DNA from: a phage
Length of the DNA stretch: 64,000 bases
Direction: 5' to 3' (one strand)
Sequence record: PZ019085.1
Part shown: positions 2,805 through 52,212 of the stretch, piece by piece
How the letters are laid out: each line of letters starts with the position of its first letter
How positions within the stretch are numbered: the first letter of the stretch is position 1
Position numbers and translations under genes: made by a program
Notes under the pieces: model-generated
The model's database searches: none
Seen by the model: only the letters and a program-made list of their open reading frames with translations
What the model was told of the DNA's origin: nothing

Positions 2805-2829
2805 CATAAATTAAAACAATAGGAACAAA

Positions 2830-3159
2830 ATGAAAACATATCAAGAGTTTATCACTGAAGTTACATTATCTGCGGAACAGAAAGCTGCTATCGAAGAAGG
2901 TAAAAATCCCAAAGTAACATATAAAGTAAATAGTAAAGGCGTTTTTGATGACTTGGTTCAAGACCCTGAATTGAAAAAGGCTCTTTCTAAAACTAATGCG
3001 TACTTTGCTCCTAAATTTAACACAGCCGGTGTACTTATTGGATTGGATGTATTCAACTCTAAAGGTGTTCTATCTAATGCCTTTGGTTATGCCGCTAACA
3101 AAATTACCAAAGCCGCATGGGAATCCAATACTAAACAAGCTCAAAAGCCTAGAGTATAA
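2830..3159 (+). CDS. Internal protein (capsid-targeting leader MKTYQEFITE)
   Basis: Leader motif. Confidence 0.7.
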   Translation: MKTYQEFITEVTLSAEQKAAIEEGKNPKVTYKVNSKGVFDDLVQDPELKKALSKTNAYFAPKFNTAGVLIGLDVFNSKGVLSNAFGYAANKITKAAWESNTKQAQKPRV

Positions 3160-3331
3160 TTCTTGCCTAATAAAGGGAAACGCAACCTCTCCTTATGAAC
3201 GTCGAGTCCTCTGAGTGATGTACCTTTTCCAACCTGTAATAAGGTCGAGCGCAATGCGGTAATGGGTTTACATAGCGAGTCGAAGGACATAACATGTGCC
3301 ACGGAATGGCCCAAACCTTAAGAGAAATAAT

Positions 3332-4182: not shown

Positions 4183-4545
4183 ATGAAAGCATATCAAATT
4201 CTTGAAGGTGCACATAAAGGCACTATTTATTTTGAAGACGGTACTCAAGCTCGGATTATCGTCTCTAAGACTTTTAAAGAAGACGCTATTGTAGACCCGG
4301 AAATTTTCTACGGTTTGAATGCCCGTGAAATTGAAATTGAACATCAACCTAAAGTTAAAATTGAAGGTGGTCAACATCTGAACGTTAACGTTCTGCGTCG
4401 CGAAACTCTGGAAGATGCAGTTAAGCATCCTGAAAAATATCCGCAGCTGACCATCCGCGTATCCGGTTATGCAGTTCGCTTTAACTCTCTGACTCCGGAA
4501 CAGCAGCGCGACGTTATCGCTCGTACCTTTACTGAGAGTCTATAA
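4183..4545 (+). CDS. Autonomous glycyl-radical cofactor (GrcA/YfiD-like)
   Basis: C-terminal ~65 aa ([59 protein letters not shown]) matches E. coli GrcA with the RVSGY glycyl-radical motif; that half has GC-rich host-like codons. Confidence 0.85.
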
Positions 4546-4769
4546 TGGCTAAATTGATTATAGAAGGGTCTGATGATGTTTTAAAATGTTTTGCCGCCTG
4601 GTTTAGTTGCTCAGGCGAGCAATCATTCGTTGAAGCATTTAGAACGGGTGATATTACTGGAAAATATCCGTCAACCGATATCACTGTACGCGGATATGGT
4701 ATTAATGAGCCTATCCAATTGGTCGAATATGACCTTGCCACCGATGAGGAAATTCCTTATGTCGATTGA
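4545..4769 (+). CDS. Hypothetical protein
   Basis: ORF track. Confidence 0.45.
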   Translation: MAKLIIEGSDDVLKCFAAWFSCSGEQSFVEAFRTGDITGKYPSTDITVRGYGINEPIQLVEYDLATDEEIPYVD

Positions 4770-5025
4770 AGACATCAAAGGCTACAAGCCGCATACCGAT
4801 GATAAAATCAGTAAAGTGAACGCTATTAAAGATGCAGAAGTCCGTCTTGGATTGATGTTTGATGCTCTGATTGAAGAAGCATATATCTTGAAAGAAAACG
4901 AAACAGAGCAACAAACCAAAGAAGATATGGATGCAGTGCAGGCTCTTAAGTATGCTAAGCAACACCTAAAAGAAGCCAGCATGTGGGCATGTCGTGCAGT
5001 ATTTCGACCTGAGGAAAAATACTAA
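4759..5025 (+). CDS. Hypothetical protein
   Basis: Internal ATG of the 4591 ORF, preceded by gaggaaa; overlaps the upstream stop. Confidence 0.4.
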   Translation: MSIEDIKGYKPHTDDKISKVNAIKDAEVRLGLMFDALIEEAYILKENETEQQTKEDMDAVQALKYAKQHLKEASMWACRAVFRPEEKY

Positions 5026-5240
5026 TGGCCTCTACTATTACCGGGTTATTGGACTTTCAAGAAAAGGTCAACAAAATTTGTAGTGAATACTTAAAGTATC
5101 TTGAAGAAGACCTTGAAGATTGTAAGGAAGAAGGCGAAGAAGACTATGCTGACCAGCGTCGTCGCCAAATCGAAGAGATGAGGCATTTCGCCAATATGGT
5201 ATCTAAAGAATCTTGGGCTTTAACTCCATTTTATCAATAA
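5025..5240 (+). CDS. Hypothetical acidic protein
   Basis: ORF track. Confidence 0.45.
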   Translation: MASTITGLLDFQEKVNKICSEYLKYLEEDLEDCKEEGEEDYADQRRRQIEEMRHFANMVSKESWALTPFYQ

Positions 5241-7715: not shown

Positions 7716-8297
7716 ATGGCTAGTTTAATTTTTACATATGCCGCTATGAACGCTGGTAAGTCTGCTTCATTACTTACTGCCGCACATAACTATAAAGAAC
7801 GTGGCATGGGTGTATTAGTTCTTAAACCGGCTATTGATACTCGCGATTCAAAAGGTGAAATAGTCTCTCGTATTGGTATTCGTCAGGACGCCAATATAAT
7901 TACAAAAGACATGGATATCTTTGAATTCTATAAATGGGCTGCGGCACAAAAGGATATTCATTGTGTATTTGTTGACGAAGCTCAGTTCTTAACTACTGAA
8001 AAGGTGTATCAACTTAGTCGTATTGTTGACGTATACAATGTGCCAGTAATGGCATATGGACTACGAACAGATTTTAAAGGTAATCTATTTGAAGGTTCTC
8101 AAGCATTAATGGCTATTGCCGATAAGCTTGTTGAACTTAAAGGTGTCTGTCATTGTGGTAAAAAGGCCACAATGGTAGCTAGAGTCACGGAAGACGGACT
8201 TCCAATTACGGATGGCAGTCAAATTGAAATTGGTGATACCGATAGATATGTGTCATTATGCCGGAAGCATTGGAATGATTTGACAGGGTTGTTATAA
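7716..8297 (+). CDS. tk: Thymidine kinase
   Basis: P-loop NAGKSASLL, FVDEAQF, C-terminal CHCGKKA zinc ribbon; matches T4 Tk. Confidence 0.95.
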   Translation: MASLIFTYAAMNAGKSASLLTAAHNYKERGMGVLVLKPAIDTRDSKGEIVSRIGIRQDANIITKDMDIFEFYKWAAAQKDIHCVFVDEAQFLTTEKVYQLSRIVDVYNVPVMAYGLRTDFKGNLFEGSQALMAIADKLVELKGVCHCGKKATMVARVTEDGLPITDGSQIEIGDTDRYVSLCRKHWNDLTGLL

Positions 8298-8324
8298 ATA
8301 CTAATATCTAACCAAGAGGTATAT

Positions 8325-8537
8325 ATGCAGCAATTAAACGAAAGACAACTTCGTAATCTTACTGTAACCCAATTGGATGAAATCCGAAGAGAATTAGGAC
8401 ATTCTATTTCTCATTTAAACGAGGATATCCGTCAAACTGGTTCTAAAGCTGATTATACACGCAAGCGCAAGCTGGAAAAATACCTCACAGATGTTAAGGC
8501 CGTCCAAAGGCGAAAAATAAATACTGGCCAAAATTAA
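8325..8537 (+). CDS. Hypothetical protein
   Basis: ORF track. Confidence 0.45.
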
Positions 8538-10971: not shown

Positions 10972-11957
10972 TGAAAACAATTATGAAAGGCTACTTTGGT
11001 AGTCACCTTTATGGAATGTCTACTCCTGAATCCGACGTCGATTTTAAAGAAATTTATGTCCCTCATGCTCGTGATATTTTGACCGGTAACGTTAAAGAAC
11101 ATATGAGCAAGAACACGAATAACACATCTTCTAAGAACACAAAAGACGACGTGGACCACGAGTTGTATAGTCTCAAATATTTCTTTAAACTAGCTGCAGA
11201 TGGTGAAACCGTCGCATTAGATATGCTTCACACTCCACCAGGTTTAGTAGTTAAATCTGATTTGCCTGACGTGTGGAAGTATATTCAAGATAACAGGTCT
11301 CGTTTCTATACCACTAACATGAAATCTTATTTAGGGTATGTCCGTAAGCAAGCTTCTAAATATGGTGTCAAGGGTTCTCGACTGGCTGTTCTTCGTCAAG
11401 CCCTTAAACGTTCTAATGAATGGGGACAATACTTTGATAATGGTGCAGTAATTCGTTTATCACATATGAAGAATGTTCTGCCTGTAGGTGAATTTGCTTC
11501 ATGGGTTGAAACCGAAAACGAGAAAACAGGTAAGCAAACATTCTATAATCTGTTAGACCGTAAATTCCAAGACACATTAACCAATAAAGAGTTCAATGCC
11601 ATCCTTGTTAAACTAGAAGAGAACTATGGCGAACGTGCTCGTAAGGCAGAAGCTAACGAAGGTATTGACTGGAAAGCATTGAGTCATGCATGTCGTGGTG
11701 GACTTCAATTATTGGAAATTTACAAAACAGGCGACCTGGTTTACCCACTTCAGGATGCTCCGTTTATTCTCGATGTTAAGCTTGGTAAACATACGTTTAA
11801 AACTGTACAAGAATTCCTAGAAGATATCGTTGACCAAGTTGAACATGCGTCAGAACAAGCTGCCAAGAACGGTATGCAACAAAAAGTAGATATGAGTTTC
11901 TGGGATGACTTCCTTGAACAAGTCTATCTCGAAAATCATAATTCTTACTATAAATAA
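10968..11957 (+). CDS. Predicted nucleotidyltransferase (Pol-beta-like fold)
   Basis: N-terminal motif GYFGSHLYGMSTPESDVDF resembles the NTase GS...DxD signature. Confidence 0.45.
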   Translation: MMKTIMKGYFGSHLYGMSTPESDVDFKEIYVPHARDILTGNVKEHMSKNTNNTSSKNTKDDVDHELYSLKYFFKLAADGETVALDMLHTPPGLVVKSDLPDVWKYIQDNRSRFYTTNMKSYLGYVRKQASKYGVKGSRLAVLRQALKRSNEWGQYFDNGAVIRLSHMKNVLPVGEFASWVETENEKTGKQTFYNLLDRKFQDTLTNKEFNAILVKLEENYGERARKAEANEGIDWKALSHACRGGLQLLEIYKTGDLVYPLQDAPFILDVKLGKHTFKTVQEFLEDIVDQVEHASEQAAKNGMQQKVDMSFWDDFLEQVYLENHNSYYK

Positions 11958-11988
11958 GTAGATAAATAACCCTTAACTTGAGGTAAAT

Positions 11989-17435: not shown

Positions 17436-17740
17436 TGAAACTACGTCTTTTAGAGGATATTGATATGAGCACTAATCACAGCTTGGTTAAGTTTATTGAC
17501 GATAGTTCAAAGATTGAATTTGTTCAGCGAGATAAAATCCACAGTGAAGAAGAGTTCGTTCCTCCGGCATGGAACGAAATAATGAAAATGGTTGAACGAC
17601 GTGAAAATGCTGCCAAATCGGCAGCAAAACATCCATGCCCGGAATGTGGAACTATCCAAGTCCAACTGGTTAACTGGACCACTGATAACTTGAAATTGAA
17701 ATGCCGTAAATGCTTCCACAAATTTGAGAGAACATTATAA
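17435..17740 (+). CDS. Zinc-ribbon hypothetical protein
   Basis: CPECG ... CRKC. Confidence 0.5.
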   Translation: MKLRLLEDIDMSTNHSLVKFIDDSSKIEFVQRDKIHSEEEFVPPAWNEIMKMVERRENAAKSAAKHPCPECGTIQVQLVNWTTDNLKLKCRKCFHKFERTL

Positions 17741-18153
17741 TGAGATATAGCCTTCGTTGTTTTATTGCAGCTTTAGTTTTTGCCATCATTCCATTCATTT
17801 GGAACAGCCAGAATACTTACATGGAAACTAAAGTAATTCCTGTGGAGGTAGTGGAATTAATCTCAGGCCAATCTACAGGAAAATATTCTAAATTAGAATT
17901 TATTGCCGTCTATAAAGATGAGCAAGGACGAGTTTTTGACAGGCATGTATCACCGTCGTTTTATACGCTTCTGAATAAAGGTGATACGATAGCTATAGAA
18001 ATTCGTGAGATGGATATCAAACAAACTACTAAAGATAACTTGATTTGGTTCTTTGGTACAGTGTTGTTGGTTTCTATCTGTATCACAGGTTTTATTACAT
18101 GTATTGTATTTGGCATTGCATATTTAATTGATGAAAGGAAAAATAATGTTTAA
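17740..18153 (+). CDS. Membrane protein (N- and C-terminal TM segments)
   Basis: Hydrophobic termini. Confidence 0.5.
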   Translation: MRYSLRCFIAALVFAIIPFIWNSQNTYMETKVIPVEVVELISGQSTGKYSKLEFIAVYKDEQGRVFDRHVSPSFYTLLNKGDTIAIEIREMDIKQTTKDNLIWFFGTVLLVSICITGFITCIVFGIAYLIDERKNNV

Positions 18154-19063: not shown

Positions 19064-19489
19064 ATGAATATTTCTGAAACTCGCGGTAAATGGTTCAAGA
19101 TTGTTAAAGAAGATGAAGAACTACAAGACAAGTTTCCTGAATTAAAGAAAGATACGATCATCAAGGTAATTGGTACTACTACCGAAGATGGTTATGGCGA
19201 CCATGGCATTATCGAAGTGATGTTGAACACAGGTGAGAAACTTTGCATCTATGACCGTGATACTTCTCTTTGGTGCTTCTGGGAATCCCATTCAATAGAT
19301 GAACTCGAAGAAATTGATTCGGCTGATATTGCAGATGTGCTAGGTAGTAAACTTGGTGAATTCGAAGGTGAACGAATTTCTTATGCATTAGCTAAATTAG
19401 CCGGACAAGAAAATAACGACGGCTATGAAGGTAACCTGATGCAAGCAGCCGCAGAATACATTGAATATTTAGAAAGACGTTTAAGTTAA
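19064..19489 (+). CDS. Hypothetical acidic protein
   Basis: ORF track. Confidence 0.5.
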   Translation: MNISETRGKWFKIVKEDEELQDKFPELKKDTIIKVIGTTTEDGYGDHGIIEVMLNTGEKLCIYDRDTSLWCFWESHSIDELEEIDSADIADVLGSKLGEFEGERISYALAKLAGQENNDGYEGNLMQAAAEYIEYLERRLS

Positions 19490-19524
19490 TAAATACCCTT
19501 ATCTATTTAAGGTAAGGGTTTATC

Positions 19525-19998
19525 ATGTTATTATCAGGCGCAAAATATAAAGAAGAAAAACAAAAATTTTATGACGCACAGAACGGTAAGTGTCCTATTT
19601 GCCACCGCGAATTAGACCCTGATGTTCAAGGTAACCATCTTGACCACGACCATGAATTAAACGGGCCAAAAGCCGGTAGAGTTCGTGGATTACTCTGTAA
19701 TCTGTGCAACGCAGCAGAAGGTCAAATGAAGCATAAGTTCAACCGTTCTGGTCTTAAAGGCCGTGATGTCAACTACCTAGAATGGCTTGAATCTCTTCTT
19801 GATTATTTGAAACAAGATTATTCTGATAATAATATCCATCCTAATTTTGTTCCAGACAAAACTAAAGAGTTCTCAAGACTAGGTAAAGATGAAATGATGG
19901 CTGAGATGCTTCAAAGAGGATTTGAATATAATGAATCTGACACTAAAACACAGTTAATAGCTTCATTCAAAAAGCAGCTTAGAAAGAGTTTAAAATGA
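19525..19998 (+). CDS. 49: Endonuclease VII (Holliday-junction resolvase)
   Basis: MLLSGAKYKEEKQKFYDAQNGKCPICHRELDPDVQGNHLDHDHELNGPKAG... matches T4 gp49. Confidence 0.95.
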   Translation: MLLSGAKYKEEKQKFYDAQNGKCPICHRELDPDVQGNHLDHDHELNGPKAGRVRGLLCNLCNAAEGQMKHKFNRSGLKGRDVNYLEWLESLLDYLKQDYSDNNIHPNFVPDKTKEFSRLGKDEMMAEMLQRGFEYNESDTKTQLIASFKKQLRKSLK

Positions 19999-47774: not shown

Positions 47775-48023
47775 ATGGAATTATTCGTAGCTAGTTCAGT
47801 AGCAGTTTTAATCGCAGGTATTGGTTCAATCATCATTTACATGTTGCCTTGGGTAATCGCACTTATTCGTGGCACAAAAAGCACAACAGCAATCTTCTTT
47901 GTATCTTTACTCTTTAACTGGACGATGGTTGGTTGGATTGGAACTTTAATTTGGTCCATCGTTGCCGAAAAGAAATCGGCTCAGCAGCCTCAACAAGTAA
48001 TTATTATTCGCGAAAAAGAATAA
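47775..48023 (+). CDS. Small two-TM membrane protein
   Basis: Hydrophobic segments VAVLIAGIGSIIIY and IFFVSLLFNWTMVGWIGTLIWSIV. Confidence 0.5.
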   Translation: MELFVASSVAVLIAGIGSIIIYMLPWVIALIRGTKSTTAIFFVSLLFNWTMVGWIGTLIWSIVAEKKSAQQPQQVIIIREKE

Positions 48024-49757: not shown

Positions 49758-50780
49758 ATGGCTGAATGGATAGATAATGAATTTGCTTATCGTGCGTTTT
49801 CTCACCTACCTCGTTTTAGACAAATCAATAATTCAAGCACATTTAAATTAACATTTCGATGTCCAGTTTGTGGCGACTCCCAGACAGATGCAATGAAAGC
49901 TCGCGGATGGTATTATGGCGGTACTCCAGGTAATGTGCATTGCTATAACTGTCAATATCATAATACAATTTCCGGATACTTAAAAGAGTATGATGAAGAG
50001 CTTTATCGCGAATATCTAATGGAAGTTCGTAAAGAAAAAGCTAGAATGGAACCAAAGATTGAAAAGGTTCCTGAAGCTAAGCCGGAGCCAGAGAAAAAGA
50101 CTATAAATTCTTTGCCGTCTTGTTCTCGTCTGGACAAGCTGCCTGAAGAGCATCCTATTGTGAAATATGTTAAGTCTCGGTGTATTCCTAAAGAATCATG
50201 GAACAGATTATGGTTCACATTAGAATGGCCCAAATTGGTCAACAAGATTCAACCTGGTACGTATAAGAAAGAGATTCCCGAACCACGTTTAGTGATTCCT
50301 ATTTTTAATAAAGATGGTAAGGCCGAGTCATTCCAAGGACGTGCACTTCGTAAAGATGCTCCTCAGAAATATATCACTATTAAAGCGTTTGAGTCTGCAA
50401 CAAAAATTTATGGTGTTGAACGTGTTAAGGAAGGGGACGTCTGGGTAATGGAAGGTCCTATTGATAGTTTATTCATACCAAATGCAATCGCTATTACAGG
50501 CGGCTCAATAGATTTAGATGTGGTACCATTTAAAGAACGTCGGGTATGGGTAATGGATAATGAACCTAGGCATCCGGATACTATAGCTCGCATGAAGCGA
50601 TTAGTTGATGCAGGCGAACGTGTCATGTTCTGGGACCGAGCTCCATGGAGATCAAAGGATGTGAATGATATGGTAATGAAAGAAAATGCAACACCACAAG
50701 AAATTTTAGAATACATGAAACAGAATATTTCAAGTGGGTTGCATGCTAAAATGAGATTATCTCGTTATTCGAAGATTTAA
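49758..50780 (+). CDS. 61: DNA primase gp61
   Basis: N-terminal zinc ribbon CPVCGDS ... CYNC; TOPRIM-like region. Confidence 0.9.
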   Translation: MAEWIDNEFAYRAFSHLPRFRQINNSSTFKLTFRCPVCGDSQTDAMKARGWYYGGTPGNVHCYNCQYHNTISGYLKEYDEELYREYLMEVRKEKARMEPKIEKVPEAKPEPEKKTINSLPSCSRLDKLPEEHPIVKYVKSRCIPKESWNRLWFTLEWPKLVNKIQPGTYKKEIPEPRLVIPIFNKDGKAESFQGRALRKDAPQKYITIKAFESATKIYGVERVKEGDVWVMEGPIDSLFIPNAIAITGGSIDLDVVPFKERRVWVMDNEPRHPDTIARMKRLVDAGERVMFWDRAPWRSKDVNDMVMKENATPQEILEYMKQNISSGLHAKMRLSRYSKI

Positions 50781-50974
50781 ACAAGCCCTATAATAGCAAA
50801 AGCTAGGTCAACTACAGTATCCAATGGAACAGAAGGAACCATAACACCATGGGCAACTAACAATGGTGCAATCCCGAAGTTCCATGAAATAATGCCACCT
50901 ACAACTATTGCGGCGATAGCAGTTTTCTTTTTATTGCCTTTAATAGCGTTTATTAACGATGGAAGTTTAAACAT
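50777..50974 (-). CDS. Small membrane protein on the opposite strand
   Basis: Only convincing minus-strand ORF in the window; strong SD (aggag) before its ATG; hydrophobic (AIAAIVVGGIISWNFGIAPLLVAHGV). Confidence 0.45.
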   Translation of the reverse strand: MFKLPSLINAIKGNKKKTAIAAIVVGGIISWNFGIAPLLVAHGVMVPSVPLDTVVDLAFAIIGLV

Positions 50975-51005
50975 AATATCTCCTTAGTTACCTTATTATT
51001 TATTA

Positions 51006-51030
51006 CGCTTTATAAAATTAATGTTAGAAT
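51006..51030 (+). promoter_or_regulatory. Middle-promoter-like element (cGCTTTA box, -10 tagaat) upstream of gene 56
   Basis: MotA-box variant with 12-nt spacing to tagaat. Confidence 0.4.
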
Positions 51031-51064
51031 TATCTCTCTTACTACTGAATTGAAAGGAAAAATT

Positions 51065-51586
51065 ATGGCGCACTTTAACGAATGTTCACAACTTATTTCT
51101 GGTGTTGATAAAGCAGAAGAAGCTTATTTTAATGCTCTGATTCATGAAGATAAAGACCCACTGCAGGTAATGCTTGATATGCAGAAATCTTTACAGGTTC
51201 GTCTGGCAAATGACAAGCCTGAATATAACAAACATCCTGATGAATTGGCTACCGCCGGTGATGTTGTTGATTGGCTGCGTAATCAGAAAGATTATATTGA
51301 TGATGAATTCCGTGAACTGCTGACTTCACTTGGCGGTATGAGCAATGGTGAAAAAGCCGCTAGCTCTGTATGGAAGCCGTGGAAAGCACAACATGCTGAA
51401 TATCGTAATCGTCGTATCGATGAACTGTCTCCTGAAGACCAGCTTGAAATTAAATTCGAGATGATTGATATCCTCCACTTTGTTCTGAATATGTTCCAAG
51501 GCCTTGGACTTACTGCTGAAGAAATCTTTAAACTGTATTACCTGAAAAATGCTGAAAACTTCGCACGTCAAGACCGAGGTTACTAA
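51065..51586 (+). CDS. 56: dCTPase/dUTPase gp56 (MazG-like)
   Basis: MAHFNECSQLISGVDKAEEAYF... matches T4 gp56. Confidence 0.85.
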   Translation: MAHFNECSQLISGVDKAEEAYFNALIHEDKDPLQVMLDMQKSLQVRLANDKPEYNKHPDELATAGDVVDWLRNQKDYIDDEFRELLTSLGGMSNGEKAASSVWKPWKAQHAEYRNRRIDELSPEDQLEIKFEMIDILHFVLNMFQGLGLTAEEIFKLYYLKNAENFARQDRGY

Positions 51587-51748: not shown

Positions 51749-51973
51749 ATGAAACTTGATTTTTATGCATGGCAAAAAGCCGGGAGACCGGCTAATAAAG
51801 CATTCGGCTCTGATGGATATAATACTAGACTCCACTGGAAATTTAATACTCAAGATGATTATTCTCCGGTAATCATTAATGGTGATGTTGTTATATTAGC
51901 TAAATTCGGATATTTTATTGTCCCGAAGAAATTCATTATAAATACACCTGTAATTAAACAACAAAGGAGTTAA
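51749..51973 (+). CDS. Hypothetical small protein
   Basis: Internal ATG of the 51635 ORF; contains the soc late promoter near its 3' end. Confidence 0.35.
   Translation: MKLDFYAWQKAGRPANKAFGSDGYNTRLHWKFNTQDDYSPVIINGDVVILAKFGYFIVPKKFIINTPVIKQQRS
51937..51944 (+). promoter_or_regulatory. Late promoter TATAAATA upstream of soc
   Basis: Exact TATAAATA about 30 nt upstream of the soc ATG. Confidence 0.55.
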
Positions 51974-51975
51974 TT

Positions 51976-52212
51976 ATGGGTGGTTATGTAAACATCAAAA
52001 CCTTTACGCATCCTGCTGGTGAAGGTAAAGAAGTTAAAGGTATGGAAGTTTCTGTACCGTTTGAGATTTATTCAAACGAACATCGGATTGCAGATTCTCA
52101 TTACCAAATCTTTCCATCAGAAAAGGCAGCTTATTCTGATGTCGTTTCTGATGCAGCAACTTGGAAAACTAAGAACGCAGCAATGTTTACCCCTACACCA
52201 GTAAGTGGTTAA
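51976..52212 (+). CDS. soc: Small outer capsid protein Soc
   Basis: MGGYVNIKTF ... HYQIFPSEKAAYS matches T4 Soc. Confidence 0.85.
   Translation: MGGYVNIKTFTHPAGEGKEVKGMEVSVPFEIYSNEHRIADSHYQIFPSEKAAYSDVVSDAATWKTKNAAMFTPTPVSG

Follow-up and report, generated by a model that had tools for sequence, protein, structure and literature searches.

A conserved opposite-strand gene for a small membrane protein beside the primase gene of T-even phages, with a predicted late promoter

Results

The window analysed here is the whole stretch of 64,000 nucleotides taken from sequence record PZ019085.1. It comes from an RB69-like T-even phage (Mosigvirus), and the 1.2 kb around the locus described below are 97–98% identical to many Mosigvirus phages. 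Gene 61 for the DNA primase lies at 49758..50780 (+), as given by the ORF listing and as annotated in close relatives, and its product is 73% identical to T4 gp61. Gene 56 for the dCTPase, called dCTP pyrophosphatase in relatives, follows at 51065..51586 (+). The mechanical ORF of gene 56 opens at TTG 51050, and the likelier start is ATG 51065, which we placed from the lengths annotated in relatives and from the conserved gp56 N-terminus MAHFNE. Between these two genes, on the opposite strand, is a small membrane-protein CDS at 50777..50974 (−), convergent with gene 61 and divergent from gene 56. It starts with ATG, encodes 65 residues (MFKLPSLINAIKGNKKKTAIAAIVVGGIISWNFGIAPLLVAHGVMVPSVPLDTVVDLAFAIIGLV) and is preceded, 5 nt upstream of the ATG, by a Shine–Dalgarno sequence that reads TAAGGAG at 50980..50986 (−). 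Its stop codon TAA (50779-50777, −) and the stop codon TAA of gene 61 (50778-50780, +) have the palindrome TTAA at 50777..50780 in common, which is a CDS overlap of 4 nt. The 90-nt spacer that separates the small ORF from gene 56 (50975-51064) contains the late-promoter box discussed below.

Open reading frames in the window are strongly biased by strand: counted from stop to stop, 49 open frames reach 150 codons on the plus strand and five do so on the minus strand. The near-identical annotated phage mobillu encodes a small-ORF protein identical to that of the window, and there the small ORF is the sole opposite-strand CDS among ~140 CDSs in the ~71 kb equivalent to the window. A sequence-only reading of the window had described a hydrophobic 65-residue ORF with a strong Shine–Dalgarno sequence, alone on the opposite strand, convergent with the primase gene and overlapping its stop by 4 nt. 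Each descriptive element is correct, as judged from the sequence and from the mobillu annotation, and the coordinates of the two stops agree with the overlap.

The gene is already known and catalogued. It has been annotated in RB69 since 2003 as RB69ORF029w (NP_861719.1; PHROG 2024 / pVOG VOG1982), which is the ortholog of the small CDS: the two proteins are ~95% identical (3 of 65 residues differ), and the genes have the same position, orientation, 4-nt overlap with the gene 61 stop, and upstream box and Shine–Dalgarno sequence. Hundreds of T-even phage records list the product as a ‘hypothetical protein’, and the identical protein has several NCBI accessions and is found on 156 contigs. Given these accessions and the PHROG family, little is at stake for novelty. 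A literature search found no paper mentioning the small gene. The curated T4 RefSeq NC_000866 has no CDS at 17738-17938 (+) (4739-4939 of our T4 locus, L002), between dam and gene 61, and the exact T4 protein is without an NCBI accession; other T4 records and most relatives annotate the gene. The CRISPRi-ART T4 library covers annotated CDSs only. With no CDS in the T4 RefSeq, the gene is missed by RefSeq-based omics, knock-down libraries and proteome databases.

By tblastn, the frame is matched in 693 phage records, with a coverage of at least 80% in 686 of them, and identities fall to 55% in T4 and 45–46% in Gaprivervirus CJ20 and Yersinia phage P8. The protein matches the PHROG 2024 profile from residue 1 to 65 of its 65 positions (E 2.6e-27), and the same profile is matched by the homologs from T4, S16, Roth51 and KLB31 and by the type-B paralogs described below. 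When 1.84 billion representative proteins were searched with a profile, only eight clusters were returned, all of small T-even phage proteins. The distant ones were traced to Salmonella S16 (gp16.1), Citrobacter Merlin and CkP1, Klebsiella phages and Kanagawavirus KLB31. The distant subfamilies are found in Gelderlandvirus, Moonvirus, Kanagawavirus and Klebsiella phages, and each of them matches PHROG 2024. The frame is without stops in hundreds of genomes from at least seven genera, down to ~25–45% identity, and indels among the homologs are in frame and comprise whole codons only. Where measurable, dN/dS is 0.05–0.46, and between genera dS is saturated and dN is only 0.2–0.75. Pairs of homologs differ on average by 0.38, 0.15 and 0.51 at the first, second and third codon positions. 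Across homologs the coding frame has 0 stops; of the five other frames, four average 3.8–7 stops and one, which is antisense, averages 0.8. Upstream, AGGAGG or AGGAGA stands at an equal distance from the ATG in nearly all homologous loci. By these comparative measures the ORF at 50777..50974 (−) is a genuine protein-coding gene under purifying selection. Frameshifted alleles are rare (P0068, P0071 and P0073) and suggest that the gene is probably non-essential in the laboratory or dispensable under some conditions. A further homolog, P0074 (61 aa), has many residues changed to V, I or F (MVFVNVIKGNKKCIVFIIFVMVGILFWNF...) and resembles a hypermutated or error-laden read, not a natural variant.

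At all loci examined, the small gene lies between genes 61 and 56 and is convergent with the primase gene. This arrangement is found in Mosigvirus, Tequatrovirus, Gaprivervirus, Gelderlandvirus, Moonvirus, Kanagawavirus and Klebsiella phage loci, and it is kept despite insertions of dam (T4), homing endonucleases (fPS-2 and P8) or a mazG-like gene (KLB31 and Merlin). The two stops overlap by the same 4 nt in T4, RB69, S16, Merlin, KLB31 and the locus L028; the stops do not overlap in L020, L022, Roth51 and CJ20, where a gap of 10–119 nt separates the genes. Some phages carry at this site a second subfamily, type B (MG.IFYQIWKLA...WNL..VP...), which is alone there in L028 and L031. In L022 the two types form a tandem B-A operon (2805-3008 and 3001-3198) with one late box ahead of the first gene. 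Gaprivervirus keeps type B as a frameshifted remnant, which lies downstream of the ORF in L030 and CJ20 (L005). No family member was found among positional analogues beside primases of at most 55% identity (80 loci, including four large T4-like contigs and many environmental ones), and membership therefore seems limited to the T4/RB69 branch of enterobacterial T-even phages.

The protein is hydrophobic (GRAVY 1.2), with its best 19-residue Kyte–Doolittle window (1.93) at residues 22–41. AlphaFold2, supplied with a 16-sequence alignment, predicts helices at 3–11, 15–41 and 51–62 with a pLDDT of 83, and independent annotations carry the wording ‘contains transmembrane domain’ or ‘putative membrane protein’. 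Residues W31, N32, F33, P37, G43 and P47 are invariant, together with a basic K12/K16 stretch. The family signature is a length of 60–70 aa, a basic N-terminus and a hydrophobic helix with W-N-(F/Y/L), followed after 4–5 residues by a proline and then by a glycine and a proline-containing loop; the protein has all of these and distant members keep them. Charges lie at the N-terminus (KGNKKK), and the C-terminus is hydrophobic (...DLAFAIIGLV). Trypsin would release a single peptide of any size, 48 residues long and hydrophobic, which makes the protein poorly suited to detection by shotgun MS. By the positive-inside rule, the basic N-terminus would face the cytoplasm. The Trp-Asn-Phe in the middle of the long helix, followed by Pro and Gly, suggests a surface for specific contacts within the membrane. 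The hydrophobic helix at the C-terminus falls short of the length of a standard membrane span, which leaves the topology uncertain. Searches of known families gave no Pfam family even at E 10, only noise in NCBIfam, nothing better than E >0.8 in a PDB sequence profile search and 0 matches in Foldseek against PDB; Foldseek against BFVD returned family members only, one of them labelled ‘Holin’.

T4 late promoters have a TATAAATA box at −13 to −6, and among 50 listed T4 late sites the box is perfect in 32 and has A at −13 in nine (PMC2988020). Upstream of the small ORF, 22 nt before its ATG, lies a T4-type late box with the A(−13) variant, AATAAATA, at 50997..51004 (−). From this predicted promoter, transcription would start near 50991 (−), equivalent to ~17722 (+) in T4 NC_000866, and give a leader of ~17 nt. 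Such boxes are rare in the window. The perfect TATAAATA occurs three times against 7.2 expected and VATAAATA six times against 22.7 expected, with counts at least as high as the observed one in 100 of 100 shuffles. The motif NATAAATA is present in nine copies over both strands, which is 2–4 times rarer than in shuffled sequence. Seven copies are on the plus strand (889-896, 8293-8300, 8516-8523, 11949-11956, 11961-11968, 19488-19495 and 51937-51944) and two on the minus strand (51004-50997 and 4231-4224). Eight of the nine lie 20–32 nt upstream of a Shine–Dalgarno sequence and ATG that open an ORF on the same strand. Besides the small ORF, the starts so preceded are, all on the plus strand, those of e (921), a 70-aa phrog_1826 ORF (8325), rI (8550), an 88-aa phrog_2243 ORF with a double box (11989), gene 49 (19525) and soc (51976). 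The genes e, rI, 49 and soc are classical late-promoter genes inside the T4 early region. Within the early region of the window, the box thus appears to be a near-perfect marker of late starts. The remaining copy, AATAAATA at 4224-4231 (−), is the only late-type box without an ORF behind it; it lies inside plus-strand genes, where it may have arisen by chance or may be an orphan late promoter in antisense orientation.

The box is also a feature of the family. Nearly every lineage has a NATAAATA box 20–30 nt ahead of its ATG, beside the conserved AGGAGG, with variants ATTAAATA in S16 and Merlin and TATTAATA in L020. A perfect TATAAATA box is absent at the small-ORF locus in every lineage; the boxes there depart from it at −13 or have TA changed to AT. 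Since the box is kept while the surrounding sequence and the upstream neighbour vary, it belongs to the small ORF, not to gene 56. On these sequence grounds we strongly infer that the small gene is most likely strictly late. On the other strand, at 51003-51035 (+) upstream of gene 56, ACGCTTTA followed by 12 nt and TAGAAT resembles a MotA-box middle promoter; this putative promoter is back to back with the small-ORF late box and abuts it. The T4 RefSeq notes that the gene 56 transcript primes the origin oriA.

The late genes e, 49, rI and soc resemble the small gene in that they encode small late products among early genes and carry a gp55-type box, which in the window lies 24–31 nt before their ATG. 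They differ in strand: all four lie on the early-transcribed strand and the small gene lies on the opposite one. Three of them have hairpin leaders on the plus strand, each beginning right after the late box, in which the Shine–Dalgarno sequence or the AUG is buried: e (885-930, −16.3 kcal/mol), gene 49 (19484-19534, −13.2 kcal/mol) and soc (51933-51985, −12.4 kcal/mol). Such hairpins, which hide the ribosome-binding site, are a classical T4 device by which read-through early transcripts stay untranslated.

No site resembling an intrinsic terminator was found where the two genes converge or, on the minus strand, in the 3 kb that follow, so the late RNA should continue as an antisense transcript into the tail of gene 61. 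A T4 dRNA-seq study reports 150 transcription starts of the phage, 22 of them antisense (bioRxiv 10.1101/2024.04.04.588121). Inside the tail of gene 61, at 50744-50677 (−) and 33–100 nt beyond the small-ORF stop, a hairpin is followed by UUUUCUUUC, and T4 has a homologous hairpin (L002 ~4975-5030, +) in which two pairs carry compensatory changes. RNAalifold on the overlapped gene 61 tail from 19 lineages gave 0 conserved pairs. The hairpin and U-tract folds in the window and in T4, but we do not claim it as a terminator, as it is not conserved family-wide; it is possibly a lineage-specific 3′ end of the late transcript.

Discussion

The locus holds a conserved gene under selection, with conserved synteny, box and Shine–Dalgarno sequence and a hydrophobic product. 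The sequence-only reading had taken it for a membrane-protein gene that might be late or independently regulated, and had named conservation of the reading frame in related phages as the check. The frame proves to be conserved across genera; its selection, one clear hydrophobic helix and the predicted helices 15–41 and 51–62 bear out a membrane-protein gene, and the gp55-type box 22 nt before the ATG, kept in nearly all lineages, favours the late alternative. We conclude, with a probability of roughly 80%, that this is a T-even gene for a 65-residue inner-membrane micro-protein, read late and on the opposite strand from a variant gp55-type promoter. Late timing, membrane topology and antisense read-through are the parts of this picture that we infer. 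Transcription from the late variant AATAAATA would yield the ~17-nt leader with a strong ribosome-binding site. The product would hold its basic N-terminus in the cytoplasm and span the membrane by the helix at ~15–41 with W-N-F and P37, followed by G43, a short conserved loop and the hydrophobic C-terminal helix 51–62.

The orientation offers a rationale for the timing. All T4 early and middle transcription has one polarity, which is opposite to that of the small ORF (PMC2988020). Being on the strand opposite to early and middle transcription, the small gene should be absent from early RNA, and the inverted orientation would thereby enforce strictly late synthesis. It would be a second and tighter route to a strictly late product, compared with hairpins that bury the ribosome-binding site, and with the gene on the opposite strand no such lock is needed. 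This arrangement would suggest that early synthesis of the small membrane protein is disfavoured.

What the protein does is a matter of more tentative proposals. Our best guess is that it would bind a larger membrane protein late in infection, in envelope, lysis-timing or exclusion functions. A broader proposal, which we offer as speculative and would not expect to hold in full, is that the protein has an overlooked part in what happens at the envelope late in infection (timing or inhibition of lysis, late superinfection exclusion, or protection from abortive-infection systems that act on the membrane) and that, in addition, its unterminated transcript silences primase mRNA at that stage. T4 Imm, Ac and RI are of similar size and are membrane-embedded or membrane-anchored. 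They are early or early-and-late genes on the main strand, their functions (exclusion, acridine sensitivity and antiholin) are genetically defined, unlike that of the small protein, and family searches found no sequence similarity to it. An Imm-like gene is present 3 kb away in the window (47775-48023).

A narrower version of such a function seems to us unlikely, namely that the product resembles a holin or is an accessory to lysis timing, made late and perhaps acting with holin T or with the antiholins RI and RIII to tune lysis or lysis inhibition. The protein is small, membrane-embedded and predicted late, two other box-flagged genes in the early region are the lysis genes e and rI, and the probable lack of early expression would fit a product that is harmful if made early. 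One homolog record, P0067, is labelled ‘Holin’ (the BFVD match), but that label has no stated evidence, and no holin-family similarity was found in PHROG, Pfam or NCBIfam. Holins are small late proteins with one or more transmembrane domains, and such a domain is predicted here from the Kyte–Doolittle value of 1.93 and the AlphaFold2 helix 15–41. A highly charged hydrophilic C-terminal tail and genetic linkage to endolysin are not found: the charges cluster at the N-terminus, the protein ends in a hydrophobic stretch (AIIGLV), and endolysin e (921-1409) is ~50 kb away. The holin label is rejected on these two grounds. T4 lysis needs holin T and t mutants fail to lyse, so the small protein is not a sufficient holin. 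Class II holins or pinholins such as S68 of phage 21, a protein of ~70 aa with two membrane spans, are likewise small late membrane proteins with two hydrophobic segments; the second segment of the small protein, however, falls short of a membrane span, the C-terminus bears no charged tail, and the gene is unlinked to endolysin and without homology to them.

We consider it quite improbable that the locus acts mainly through RNA, with a late antisense transcript shutting down primase mRNA and the ORF secondary. The convergent geometry, the overlapping stops and the lack of a terminator between the genes or in the 3 kb beyond would allow such an effect. However, strong purifying selection on amino acids, the invariant residues and saturated synonymous sites are unexplained by RNA alone, the substitution pattern is of the coding type (dN/dS <0.5), and RNAalifold found no conserved structure in the overlapped region. 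The antisense overlap is also not obligatory, since in CJ20 a 119-nt spacer with a hairpin and T-run parts the ORF from the primase gene. An RNA-only role is rejected on the codon evidence.

Early or constitutive expression from a sigma-70-type promoter, with the NATAAATA box as incidental AT-rich sequence, is highly improbable. A weak sigma-70 match (9 of 12 positions) does lie upstream of the small ORF at 51091-51062 (−), but such matches occur at chance frequency (3 found against 3.6 expected). The late box, in turn, is depleted genome-wide and yet keeps a fixed distance from the ATG across genera with differing neighbours, and early and middle transcription in T4 runs the other way (PMC2988020). 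Finally, a chance open frame in AT-rich DNA, spread by annotation pipelines, is a negligible prospect: the ORF is short and the curated T4 RefSeq annotation is without it, but the stop-less frame in hundreds of genomes, in-frame indels, dN/dS well below 1, the conserved Shine–Dalgarno sequence and the existence of tandem paralogs rule out a spurious ORF by comparative and codon evidence.

To a catalogued gene we add the coding evidence and the evidence for a conserved late promoter, a rationale for its orientation, two subfamilies and the T4 annotation gap. The curated T4 reference is without a gene on which purifying selection clearly acts in relatives. The map of boxes provides a simple rule, open to testing, by which late promoters may be recognised within the early region of this phage, and strand inversion, set against hairpins that hide the ribosome-binding site, would make two ways of keeping a late product off early in infection. 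If a role in lysis timing or exclusion is true, the small protein would be a new component of a classical system.
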